Part shown: piece by piece, positions 13,947 through 16,442 of the stretch | Layout of the letters: every line of letters starts with the position of its first letter | Position numbering within the stretch: the stretch's first letter is position 1 | Source of the DNA: an uncultured bacterium | GTDB lineage: Bacteria > Oederibacteriota > JAAXVQ01 > JAUVAV01 | Length of the DNA: 64,000 nt | Direction of reading: 5' to 3' | NCBI GenBank assembly: GCA_963710755.1 | Contig: CAVQBK010000003.1 | Location: forward strand, 211,605-275,604 | Notes under the pieces: model-generated | The model's database searches: none | What the model was told of the DNA's origin: nothing | What the model saw: the letters and a program-made list of their open reading frames with translations, nothing else | Made by a program: the position numbers and the translations under genes

Positions 13947-16442
13947 ATGGAGCGCATCGTTAAATCTGATAAACCTTCGCGCCACGTCAAGCAACCGCTT
14001 CCCCCACAGCGGTCCGGTGCCGCCCTACCCCACACCCTGGCCCAGAAGAAAACCACATGTGTCTGCGACGGCAGCTGTCCCCGTTGCCAAGGGGACAACA
14101 CCTTATCCTCCAATACTATCGCCCCGTTGCCTACCGCTCTCACCGGCGGCCGGCCCCTGGATGAGCCTACCCAACTATGGATGTCCAGCCGGTTTAACCA
14201 TGATTTCAGTTCCGTACGGATTCATACCGGCGCCGCGGCGGAAGCAAGCGCCAGCGCCGTCAATGCCAGGGCCTTTACCCAAAAAAACCATATTACCTTT
14301 AACTTCGGAGAATATGCGCCGCATACGGCCAGCGGTCAGCACTTATTGGCCCATGAATTAACCCATGTGGTCCAGCAAGCAGCCGGTCCCTTTGGTAATC
14401 AAAAAAGGATACACTTCGATAAGCGTACGGAAAAAGAAGCCCGCGATGTTGCCGGTAAGCTAACCAATGCCAGGCAGCCCCTCACCGTTAAAGAACAGTG
14501 TGCCCCCGGTCTGGCGCGGTCGCCGCGGTCATTGGTGGAAACCCTGAATTACCCGTCTATGTCCTCCGTCGACCTTTACCGCGAATATAATCTTATACGT
14601 CAATGGCTTAGTGATGCTGCCCATGAAGGCAGCAGTGAAGAACGTTATAAATTGGAGACGGCTTTACAAATCATAGAGCCGCTGTTATCAGGCGGTGGCC
14701 CGGCTTCAAAACCAAGGCCAAGAGCGGTTAAAAAGAAAAAGCAGGCGGACATGCCTGCGCAAGCCCTGGCCGCACCACTGCCCCGGTCAGTGGCCGCGCA
14801 GTATTCAGATGCTAAATTGGATAATGAAATACGCCGGATTGAGGTGTGGCTGGCCGGCCAGGTGGAAAACAATGAACAAACCCATGCTATGAGCCAGGCC
14901 TTAAAACAGTGGCAAGCAGAAAAGCGCCGGCGGCAAAGGCCAAACGCAGAAGCCGCCCGGCCGCCGGAACCGGCTTCTCTCGATAGTAATTTGAATACCG
15001 ATCAGCTGACCGATGAGGAAATCAAACTGGAACTAACCCATATCGAGGCTTGGATAAAGGCCCAGGTCGAAAATACGGAAGACCTATACCGATTAAAACG
15101 AGCCCGGGAACGGCTGAAAGAAACTTTGCATGACCGCGCCTTACAAGCCTTTTATAAACGAGAAATGAAAAAATTAAAATCCCGGGAAGCCAAAAAGAAA
15201 GCCTTGCAGAAGATGAAAGAAAAAGGATTGCCTGCCTTGGTGCTGGCCTATTTAAACAAGCCCCATTTATTTAAAGGACCAAAGTCTTTGGTGGCCACGA
15301 TCAAAGAAAAGACGGTACATATCCGATATCTCGATGGCTCCGATGCCTATGATATTCAGGGATTTTTAATACCTTTAAACGGGATGATCCTGAAAGCAAA
15401 CTGGACAACCTATTCCAGCCGCATCGGCAACATACCTTGGTATGCCAAATTTATTTTGAACCGGCCGGCCATGGATCAACACGAGTACGTCTTCGCTATG
15501 GCCAATAGTGAAATCAAACAACGGCTCTATGTCTTGCATTTAATGGCTCAGGGGCTGTCGTTGGAGCAAGCCAATAAGAAATTGAAGACATTGATGACAG
15601 CCAATTTTGATATTATGAAAATAACGGCCACGCAGGTTGTGCCCTACATTGCGGGAGAAACCTTATTTATGCCTTCCGAACCGGGACTGCCCACTTCCAA
15701 ACGAGGCCGGGCCGGCAGGGCCGCGCCGGCACCAAAGGCAAGTGCCGCGCCGGTTGAAACACCGGCCGCGCCGGCAAAAGCAAGGTCAGCAACCGCCCGG
15801 CCTGCGACAGAATCACCGGCATCGGTGGTATCCCCAACCATGCGGCCGCAAAACGCAGGCGGACTGAAACGGCTGAGCGATGAAGCCAAAGCCACCTTAA
15901 CCAAGTCCGGTCTCTTCACCGGTGCCTGGCGGCAGCGTTTGCACAGTATCCAACAGACGGTGGTTGACTTCATTAATGATTTTCATTCTGCCCCTGGTTT
16001 TGAAAAAGTAGTGCAGGACTGGCTGGCCAAAGGGAACAAACGTAAGGGTGCTGCTTTTGTTATCCGCTTTGCAAAAGAACTCATACAAAAAGTGCCCAAA
16101 GCCAAACGCTATATGTCCTTTGAAAGAAAACTGGCCTTTTTACCGGGTGGTAAATCTGCCCGAGAAATTGATATCGTGGTTGGCGGCATGCGCTATGAGT
16201 TGAAATCCTGGCAGCGTTTATACAGCCGAACGGTCAGAAAACAGTTCCTCAAAGATATGGCCCTGATTGGTGATCCTAATAAGTTGAAATGGGTGTTTGA
16301 CAGTAGTAAAATAGCGCTGAACGCAAAAGCCATTGCGGCCCAAATCCGGCAAATACTGACATCGGAAAAGTCTTTTGTCCGCAACTATCCGGGTTTGCAA
16401 ACCTGGCTGGATGCCTTGGAAAAAATTGTTCACGTAAAATAA
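13947..16442 (+). CDS. DUF4157-domain protein (zincin-like HExxH), putative eCIS cargo/effector, 831 aa
   Basis: N-terminus DEPTQLWMSSRFNHDFSSVRIHTGAAAEASASAVNARAFTQKNHITFNFGEYAPHTASGQHLLAHELTHVVQQ is the DUF4157 signature. It is followed by K/E-rich predicted coiled coils, a Pro/Ala-rich linker (aa ~570-640) and an uncharacterised C-terminal domain. Divergent from the eCIS operon. Confidence 0.75.
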   Translation: MERIVKSDKPSRHVKQPLPPQRSGAALPHTLAQKKTTCVCDGSCPRCQGDNTLSSNTIAPLPTALTGGRPLDEPTQLWMSSRFNHDFSSVRIHTGAAAEASASAVNARAFTQKNHITFNFGEYAPHTASGQHLLAHELTHVVQQAAGPFGNQKRIHFDKRTEKEARDVAGKLTNARQPLTVKEQCAPGLARSPRSLVETLNYPSMSSVDLYREYNLIRQWLSDAAHEGSSEERYKLETALQIIEPLLSGGGPASKPRPRAVKKKKQADMPAQALAAPLPRSVAAQYSDAKLDNEIRRIEVWLAGQVENNEQTHAMSQALKQWQAEKRRRQRPNAEAARPPEPASLDSNLNTDQLTDEEIKLELTHIEAWIKAQVENTEDLYRLKRARERLKETLHDRALQAFYKREMKKLKSREAKKKALQKMKEKGLPALVLAYLNKPHLFKGPKSLVATIKEKTVHIRYLDGSDAYDIQGFLIPLNGMILKANWTTYSSRIGNIPWYAKFILNRPAMDQHEYVFAMANSEIKQRLYVLHLMAQGLSLEQANKKLKTLMTANFDIMKITATQVVPYIAGETLFMPSEPGLPTSKRGRAGRAAPAPKASAAPVETPAAPAKARSATARPATESPASVVSPTMRPQNAGGLKRLSDEAKATLTKSGLFTGAWRQRLHSIQQTVVDFINDFHSAPGFEKVVQDWLAKGNKRKGAAFVIRFAKELIQKVPKAKRYMSFERKLAFLPGGKSAREIDIVVGGMRYELKSWQRLYSRTVRKQFLKDMALIGDPNKLKWVFDSSKIALNAKAIAAQIRQILTSEKSFVRNYPGLQTWLDALEKIVHVK

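Follow-up and report, generated by a model that had tools for sequence, protein, structure and literature searches.

A DUF4157 protein with a probable BaCT-type nuclease domain: a candidate cargo toxin beside an extracellular contractile injection system of an uncultured bacterium

In the literature on extracellular contractile injection systems (eCIS), DUF4157 is described as the eCIS core domain, typically situated N-terminal to toxins with long linkers. It is found in 36% of the eCIS-associated toxins (EATs) versus 0.06% of non-EATs, 88% of the EATs are encoded within ten genes of the operon, and the domain also occurs in some effectors of type VI secretion systems (T6SS). In AlgoCIS, Cgo1 and Cgo2 exhibit a layout of N-terminal domain (NTD), DUF4157, and C-terminal domain (CTD) and fill the lumen of the tube; their loading needs the disordered NTD and an AAA+ protein, but not DUF4157 (PMC8894135; bioRxiv 10.64898/2026.05.27.728243). 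The present study concerns a gene of this layout in a stretch of 64,000 nucleotides (hereafter the window) from an uncultured bacterium of the Oederibacteriota (GenBank assembly GCA_963710755.1, contig CAVQBK010000003.1, positions 211,605 to 275,604). The gene, taken from the list of open reading frames (ORFs), encodes 831 aa at positions 13947..16442 of the plus strand (ATG start, stop codon included) and is divergent from an eCIS operon, as a first-pass annotation of the window had noted.

The second point of comparison is the Bacteroidetes C-terminal Toxin (BaCT), a Mg-dependent PD-(D/E)xK DNase located C-terminal to TANFOR, Fn3, PT-HINT, or DUF4157, the conserved region of which centres on an invariant (D/E)xK (Jana, Salomon & Bosis 2020, PMC7073777). 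In the BaCT of Flavobacterium hydatis (WP_081912444.1, TANFOR-Fn3-BaCT, BaCT at aa 1542-1841), for which the Mg-dependent DNase activity was demonstrated by experiment, the exchanges E1724A and K1726A abolish toxicity, and an immunity protein, BaCTic, of about 326-358 aa is encoded directly downstream of BaCT, within 50 bp and on the same strand; the BaCTic family is very diverse and occasionally annotated as PQQ/COG1520 (PMC7073777). Fusions of DUF4157 and BaCT, one of them outside Bacteroidetes, have been published for Terriglobus sp. TAA 43 (WP_084214015.1; 1512 aa, DUF4157 at 175-253, transmembrane (TM) helices at 982-1133, BaCT at 1338-1441) and for Flavivirga eckloniae (WP_102755711.1) (PMC7073777 and its supplement). 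The window gene is here assigned with moderate confidence to the same category, i.e., as a DUF4157-BaCT effector that would be a cargo toxin of the adjacent eCIS. The combination is already described, hence the gene does not constitute a new kind of toxin or system.

The C-terminal domain and the BaCT family

The CTD (aa 636-831; 15852..16439, plus strand) had been regarded in the first-pass annotation as a domain of about 190 aa without recognizable motif and as a possibly novel toxic module, and its structural examination had been proposed. A separate domain of roughly 195 aa is confirmed, but it is neither devoid of motifs nor novel: AlphaFold modelling (predicted local distance difference test, pLDDT, 96.2; predicted template modelling score, pTM, 0.90) and fold matching yielded a helical bundle that leads into a beta-beta-beta-alpha-beta core of the PD-(D/E)xK nuclease type that contains D742...E751-x-K753, and the BaCT family of 2020, of which the CTD is with high probability a member, has been reported in fusion with DUF4157. 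The catalytic core, delimited by conservation and predicted secondary structure, extends over aa 723-784 (16113..16298, plus strand). Among 72 N-terminally fused family members, for which all conservation figures were computed, the conserved residues are E726 in strand 1 (96%), R739 and D742 in strand 2 (94% each), E751 (82%) and K753 (94%) of E751-x-K753 in strand 3, Q766 (96%) and D770 (99%) in the helix after strand 3, and W782/F784 in strand 4 (99% each). The family consensus reads GAxFVxR...FE...RxxD...G.RYExKSW...QxxxD...(K/R)WVF. In the model, D742 and E751 are each situated four residues from the hairpin turn, on opposite sides of it, a spacing that corresponds to the active-site geometry of PD-(D/E)xK nucleases, and the pattern E...D...ExK...Q resembles that of Hjc- and RecB-type nucleases. 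The model thus points to a PD-(D/E)xK nuclease fold with intact catalytic residues.

The best structural match of the CTD is CdiA-CT of B. pseudomallei 1026b; the fold matches include CdiA-CT 4g6v, the Tox-REase-5 proteins TseT and PA3907, as well as SfsA, BstEII, NgoMIV, Can2/Card1, TnsA, and EC869 CdiA-CT. Like the window CTD, the PoNe and Tox-REase families and the CdiA-CT toxins are C-terminal nucleases of polymorphic toxins within the PD-(D/E)xK superfamily. No Tox-REase model of Pfam, however, matches the window CTD or any of the 33 family members scanned, one of which exhibits a weak match to NERD (E=0.049). PoNe was considered because a DNase fused to DUF4157 is mentioned in an eCIS paper of 2024, and was rejected: the PoNe motif Kx3GE...GIDx2Y...Yx3ExK (Jana et al. 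2019, PMC6688995) is not present in the CTD, and no PoNi gene is adjacent.

Neither the CTD alone nor a profile of 33 members matched anything in Pfam, NCBIfam, or the PDB sequences, and a word-indexed homologue search gave no match with the CTD alone and only 18 short matches with the CTD profile. An exhaustive HMMER search through 1.84 billion cluster representatives, in contrast, revealed 164 relatives of the CTD (71 at E<=1e-10), in almost all of which the domain constitutes the extreme C-terminus. It is situated behind DUF4157 in nine proteins (P0122, P0153, P0160, P0164, P0177, P0188, P0225, P0239, P0241), behind the pre-toxin domain PT-TG in P0186 (precomputed PF14449) and about ten others with an FxPxxGxxK motif, and behind TANFOR in P0166 and P0221 (TIGR02542, E=4.6e-9 and 1.3e-5). 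Conversely, the chassis of DUF4157 and helical repeats found in the window protein ends in a DddA-like deaminase in P0009, whereas P0252 and P0261 have still other C-termini. One CTD on several chassis and several CTDs on one chassis is the behaviour of polymorphic-toxin warheads sensu Zhang et al. 2012.

Four comparisons with architecture-matched relatives, the reference WP_081912444.1 itself being compared by description only, make it very probable that the CTD belongs to the BaCT family, broadly understood. First, the TANFOR proteins P0166 and P0221 exhibit the published TANFOR-Fn3-...-toxin layout, with ExK 109-111 aa from the C-terminus versus 117 aa in the BaCT reference. Second, a gene of 344 aa with a faint PQQ_2 match follows 11 bp downstream of P0166 (locus L011) and is homologous to the gene downstream of P0221 (E about 1e-13); its size and annotation fit the published BaCTic. 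Third, P0239 (1510 aa, HExxH at 243, CTD match at 1347-1481) parallels the layout of Terriglobus WP_084214015.1, and the window CTD is 41% identical to its residues 1359-1440, the region corresponding to the annotated Terriglobus BaCT. Fourth, a profile built from only 11 proteins of BaCT architecture, both TANFOR-type and DUF4157/TM-type included, matches the window CTD at E=3.4e-29 (scaled to 1.8 billion sequences), with all catalytic columns aligned. The window protein accordingly combines a PD-(D/E)xK fold containing (D/E)xK, sequence homology, and a location C-terminal to DUF4157; no BaCTic-like gene was detected on its strand in the 50 bp that follow.

In the published DUF4157-BaCT proteins as in the window protein, DUF4157 is N-terminal and separated by a long spacer from a PD-(D/E)xK domain with ExK at the C-terminus, but there are differences: The published examples are 1372-1512 aa long, contain predicted TM helices, and are followed by a BaCTic/PQQ-like gene of 330-351 aa, whereas the window protein measures 831 aa, possesses helical-hairpin repeats and a different middle domain, and has neither a TM segment nor a BaCTic-like neighbour. 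Concerning the F. hydatis BaCT, both proteins carry a PD-(D/E)xK core around ExK as the C-terminal toxin of a polymorphic chassis, but the delivery module is TANFOR (proposed to be linked to type IX secretion, T9SS) in F. hydatis and DUF4157/eCIS in the window protein, and the cognate BaCTic stands beside the former, whereas none was detected beside the latter. The TANFOR-type domains furthermore possess an extra tail of about 30 aa, such that ExK is situated 109-117 aa from the C-terminus versus 80 aa in the window protein.

Some variation within the family was also observed. In the DUF4157/TM-type proteins P0225, P0239, and P0241, Q replaces the first residue of ExK (YQFKSW, YQLKSW, HQMKNW), whereas the window protein keeps ExK; these members may be catalytically altered or inactive, to judge from their motif. 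Nevertheless, the 2020 supplement lists as BaCT a protein of this DUF4157/TM-type architecture, Terriglobus WP_084214015.1. In at least 26 clusters of short proteins (about 200-450 aa; including P0123-P0144), an extremely Arg-rich N-terminus (up to 38% Arg) precedes a BaCT-like domain in which the catalytic E/D/ExK residues are mostly lost and the structural GF and WVF are retained; they represent a degenerate, probably non-catalytic branch of the family, and the genomic context of one of them (L014) was not informative. Locus L011 (13094-18872) contains, beyond the TANFOR-BaCT-like toxin and its immunity-type gene, an orphan PoNi gene (PoNi_N plus PoNi_C) and a second giant gene of 1629 aa, and looks like an array of polymorphic toxin/immunity cassettes.

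The DUF4157 chassis and its likeness to eCIS cargo

The modules upstream of the CTD were read from a full-length AlphaFold (AF2) model, whose alignment contained the few true homologues, and from composition statistics. In this model, the disordered start spans aa 1-64, DUF4157 aa 68-147, and the compact CTD aa 640-831. The first-pass annotation had attributed the N-terminal ~150 aa to DUF4157 and the following part to a K/E-rich coiled coil. DUF4157 (PF13699, now named eCIS_core) indeed occupies aa 70-147 (14154..14387, plus strand) and matches strongly (Pfam E=9.6e-30; 103 bits versus a cut-off of 22; model positions 1-78 of 79; AF2 pLDDT 93-96), and its signature HELTH (aa 136-140, nt 14352-14366) is found at the end of the domain and within the range given before, with H136, E137, and H140 invariant in alignment A2. 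The first 69 aa (13947..14153, plus strand), however, form a separate region that is predicted to be disordered (AF2 pLDDT 29-38 for aa 1-60); it consists to 51% of P/S/T/G/Q/A, is net basic (10 K+R versus 4 D+E, net charge +6), and contains a CxCx3Cx2C cluster (C38/C40/C44/C47). The supposed coiled coil is likewise helical, but comprises three helical-hairpin repeats with disordered spacers between them and then a long helix (aa 205-425; 14559..15221, plus strand), and is followed by a previously unnoticed middle domain (aa 430-572; 15234..15662, plus strand) of four beta-strands and subsequent helices (AF2 pLDDT 51-90). The repeats R1-R3 are situated at about aa 200-247, 284-331, and 350-397 (AF2 helices 207-247, 280-329, 356-425); R2 and R3 are clearly similar (z=9.5; 0/500 shuffles as high), whereas R1 and R3 are weakly related (z=3.2). 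The Pro/Ala-rich disordered linker was found as described before (aa 573-635; 15663..15851, plus strand; 43% P+A; AF2 pLDDT <50 over aa 571-635).

Searches of Pfam, NCBIfam, and PDB sequences with the helical region and the middle domain yielded nothing meaningful. The same helical-hairpin repeat is present in two DUF4157 proteins, P0009 and P0122 (E about 1e-9), relatives of the middle domain were found only in the DUF4157 proteins P0122, P0252, and P0261, and the entire architecture recurs in a single other protein, P0122 (955 aa). The window protein itself is a singleton at 90% identity clustering, its only full-length database match being itself on one 1.47-Mb contig, and a search with the whole protein against reference genomes revealed no related locus. 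The other 327 matches in the indexed search span only the DUF4157 tenth of the query; many of them carry further domains according to precomputed Pfam accessions, several of which are toxin or cell-wall-hydrolase families, e.g., deaminase, AHH, HNH, EndoU, Tox-SHH, and Tlde1.

The layout corresponds to that of Cgo1 and Cgo2 in the disordered NTD, DUF4157, and a variable CTD, and in both cases the proteins are encoded together with an eCIS that has an AAA+ ATPase. The CTDs differ (that of Cgo1 is a predicted metalloprotease), and the Cgo genes lie inside the operon, whereas the window gene is divergent to it; experiments have shown that Cgo1/Cgo2 lie in the lumen and require the NTD, whereas for the window protein we infer both. 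The window gene is the immediate divergent neighbour of the sheath gene, hence within about ten genes of the operon, and encodes a predicted disordered NTD before DUF4157, as is the case in EATs. Among the relatives, P0153 (DUF4157 plus CTD) is encoded inside an eCIS operon, where it is flanked by a CIS_tube gene and a further DUF4157 gene; for most others the contigs are too short to judge linkage with an eCIS.

A candidate cargo toxin, as had been supposed in the first-pass annotation, remains the best reading of the 831-aa protein, since a disordered NTD, DUF4157, a long linker, and a C-terminal toxin constitute the published architecture of eCIS effectors. By likeness to the NTD of Cgo1/Cgo2, aa 1-69 are a candidate loading signal, which would likely be specific to the system, and DUF4157 would serve as an accessory marker domain of eCIS cargo. 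The hairpin repeats, the middle domain, and the Pro/Ala linker may act as an extended spacer in front of the warhead, a putative metal-dependent PD-(D/E)xK nuclease of the BaCT family. Upon contraction of the sheath, the toxin would be released into a target cell, where the CTD would degrade DNA via D742, E751, and K753, with E726 and Q766/D770 in an assisting role. The inferred parts of this scheme are the loading into the eCIS of the window, the choice of DNA as substrate, and the nature of the target.

The neighbouring operon and the alternatives to cargo

The operon on the minus strand left of the toxin gene had been interpreted as an eCIS, and the Pfam matches of sheath, tube, Pvc16_N, AAA ATPase, and gp25 bear this out: judged by its gene content, it is a genuine eCIS with a complete-looking core set. 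Its first gene encodes the sheath (11274..13235; Phage_sheath_1C) and is followed by the gp19-type inner tube (10728..11252; Phage_T4_gp19, E=8.5e-37), the lumen of which is the presumed site of the cargo. Two genes without meaningful Pfam family, one of 243 aa with paired CxxC motifs (9868-10599) and one of 303 aa (8941-9852), are situated between the tube and a Pvc16_N-domain gene of the tail terminator/cap class (7612..8781; E=5.4e-21). The AAA+ ATPase of the Afp15/Pvc15/Alg15 class (5447..7615; Pfam AAA, E=3.4e-27) is, by analogy, the presumed cargo loader; further on are a CIS_tube-like gene (4303-4983; sub-threshold match), a gene with a VgrG-type OB domain (1999-2535), a DUF4280 (PAAR-like) gene (1664-1999; weak, sub-threshold match), and a gp25 gene (1188-1574), all of these genes being on the minus strand. 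The order of sheath, tube, these two genes, Pvc16, AAA ATPase, and baseplate genes is not the canonical one of Afp/PVC, where ATPase and terminator come last.

In the closest available relative (locus L001), the sheath is 92% identical and the operon is colinear at 70-90% nucleotide identity; the 243-aa and 303-aa genes are kept as well, at about 70% nucleotide identity. The homology reaches only about 410 nt upstream from the start of the sheath gene, and the 2.1 kb beyond contain genes for a small lipoprotein and a MarR-like protein. Concerning the divergent intergenic region (13236..13946; 711 bp, 710 bp in the earlier reading), the first-pass annotation had taken it to suggest co-regulation of toxin and sheath. 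Only the sheath-side part of about 400 nt (13236 to about 13645), however, is conserved with L001 (about 80% identity; blastn, alignment), the conservation setting in precisely at AAAAAATAATTGACAAG (minus-strand TTGACA at 13636-13631, TATAAG 15 nt downstream), whereas the toxin-side part of about 300 nt (13646-13946) is unique to the window genome relative to L001. The region is therefore better seen as two abutting halves than as a shared regulatory region; as the gene is moreover absent from the 2.1 kb examined in L001 and differs from the eCIS genes in GC content at third codon positions (GC3), the argument for co-regulation is weak, and co-regulation itself is neither supported nor excluded. 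The conserved leader of the sheath gene is unusually long; it may have a regulatory role for the eCIS operon or form a structured 5' leader. In the intergenic region, no Rfam family and no significant repeats were found, and promoter and terminator consensus matches are no commoner there than in shuffled sequence. The toxin gene is preceded by a Shine-Dalgarno-like AAGGGAG (13935..13941, plus strand; read from the sequence) 5 nt before the ATG.

Several observations weigh against the interpretation of the gene as a DUF4157-BaCT cargo toxin. In L001, the toxin gene is missing in the 2.1 kb before the sheath gene, and the 14 kb available for this locus contain no DUF4157 ORF. The GC3 of the toxin gene is 0.54 versus 0.69-0.735 in the eCIS genes and 0.66-0.68 in the downstream genes cyoAB. 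Two related DUF4157+CTD genes (in L010, a 16.8-kb contig, and in L004) are without eCIS genes in the contig sequence available. The window eCIS operon extends past the window start, such that tail fibres and any effectors at its 3' end lie outside the view. In addition, the BaCT reference was compared indirectly, as stated above, the nature of the substrate is not certain, and no BaCTic-like gene was found (both considered below).

Judged by L001, the eCIS is conserved and the toxin gene appears to be an accessory that varies. A different explanation is that of a horizontally acquired or orphan gene in a variable flank, exported by another route or unused, and not cargo of this eCIS. Synteny with L001 breaks off about 300 nt before the gene, the GC3 difference and the relatives without visible eCIS genes fit this explanation, the next 25 kb are a mosaic of low-GC toxin-antitoxin and defence-like genes, DUF4157 is known in some T6SS effectors, and the genome encodes T9SS-sorted proteins. 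We nevertheless regard it as unlikely: the gene adjoins the sheath gene, no other DUF4157 ORF is present in the 64 kb of the window, it is not part of any unrelated conserved operon, the literature gives DUF4157 a very high specificity for eCIS, and the disordered NTD is typical of loaded cargo. Neither a signal peptide nor a Por_Secre_tail domain was detected in the protein, and no T6SS genes were found among the window ORFs scanned. Because variable, horizontally exchanged effectors are usual in contractile injection systems, the atypical composition is no argument against use by the eCIS. Within the gene, GC3 falls from 0.68 in the NTD to 0.50 in the CTD; the samples are small, and the gradient is suggestive of a recombinational replacement of downstream modules, with which it fits.

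Concerning the substrate, architecture and delivery could be as proposed for the cargo toxin while the PD-(D/E)xK domain cleaves RNA (e.g., tRNA) and not DNA. DNA is not certain because CdiA-CT of B. pseudomallei 1026b, to which the CTD is structurally closest, is a tRNase; the relationship to BaCT points to DNA, and RNA cleavage is considered quite improbable.

To the right of the eCIS, synteny with L001 is lost from 13646 to 39277, and the region, to about 44150, is a GC mosaic (0.40-0.55). The only later L001 anchor is a small lipoprotein gene at 39278-39603; since no other downstream anchor exists, a clean insertion of 25.6 kb relative to L001 was not accepted, and the pattern is taken only as the end of synteny. 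It contains a cytochrome bo3-type oxidase operon (cyoABC/CtaA/CyoE) with a heme O synthase gene at its end (UbiA-family, cyoE-like; 21987-22844) that has a GC content of 0.386 and a GC3 of 0.44, a sharp break versus cyoA and cyoB (GC 0.53-0.54, GC3 0.66-0.68) inside an apparent single operon. Then follow a HicB antitoxin (23032-23409), orphan genes (24773-26269, 26735-27637), a STAND-like NTPase of 1778 aa (29029-34365) with only a weak, sub-threshold AAA_16 match, ArsR plus SdpI (35395-36440), a Panacea/SocA antitoxin (38083-38640), and three Fic genes (39688-41058, 41397-42554, 43053-44147), such that the segment looks like a toxin-antitoxin/defence island. A search for mobile-element boundaries revealed no tRNA genes in the window. 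Farther to the right (47090-60834) are genes for BatD and BatA/VWA, for two proteins that carry Por_Secre_tail, the C-terminal sorting domain of the T9SS (52037-53377, 53522-56758), and for a C25 peptidase that resembles gingipain and contains fn3 (57313-60834). By their annotation, the Bat, Por_Secre_tail, and C25 genes point to a host of the Bacteroidota/FCB group with a T9SS, which makes a 'Bacteroidetes C-terminal toxin' less unexpected in the window.

Immunity and significance

A search with phmmer, using three BaCTic-like proteins (from L011, L013, and L008) against the six-frame translation of the window, revealed no BaCTic-like immunity gene, although a divergent member of this very diverse family could escape such a search. 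The next ORF, 130 nt after the toxin gene, encodes a protein of 65 aa of the 4-oxalocrotonate-tautomerase family (16573-16770; Pfam E=3.3e-16). It possesses a good ribosome binding site (GGAGGA), stands alone between the toxin gene and cyoA, and is the only plausible ORF directly downstream, but is without resemblance to any known immunity protein. A shared immunity gene was also sought by comparing the downstream ORFs at seven CTD loci; one is common to the two TANFOR loci only, nothing similar is found in the window, and the DUF4157-linked CTD genes in L004, L006, L007, and L010 are equally without a common downstream gene.

Many EATs are without immunity genes (Geller et al.), and the window toxin, for which none was detected, fits this published puzzle. 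The lack leaves room for three options, i.e., a gene elsewhere, inactivation in cis, and action in the producer cell. According to the last of these, the nuclease acts inside the cell that makes it, either in a programmed death or lysis that releases the eCIS particles or in an abortive, defence-like response. Neither a BaCTic-like nor another candidate immunity gene is adjacent or detected in the window, a contribution of EATs to lysis has been raised by Geller et al., and the gene lies at the edge of the toxin-antitoxin/defence-like island. The same CTD, however, is found on the delivery modules PT-TG and TANFOR with immunity-type genes downstream, which is a hallmark of exported toxins, the NTD-DUF4157 layout matches cargo shown inside tubes, and an immunity gene could be situated elsewhere on the 1.47-Mb contig, such that action in the producer appears doubtful at best. 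Concerning inactivation in cis, the producer might tolerate a functional BaCT-type DNase without a dedicated immunity protein if DUF4157, the repeats, and/or the middle domain kept the nuclease from folding or from being active before its threading into the tube; this is a speculative idea, to which we give little credence. If true, chassis of the DUF4157 type would be built-in immunity or chaperone devices, which would answer both why many eCIS toxins are without immunity genes and what DUF4157 does. A compact chassis of about 640 aa with a nuclease of 195 aa and without a detected immunity gene is in any event a convenient case for studying the avoidance of self-intoxication and the role of DUF4157.

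With the interpretation as a DUF4157-BaCT cargo toxin, the presumed payload of the eCIS of this uncultured organism gains a likely biochemical function, that of a DNase. The BaCT family, for which there is neither a Pfam nor an NCBIfam model, appears to be broader than published and to include DUF4157, PT-TG, and TANFOR chassis as well as the short Arg-rich paralogues, and many 'DUF4157-only' eCIS effectors may bear a BaCT warhead that is not annotated as such.

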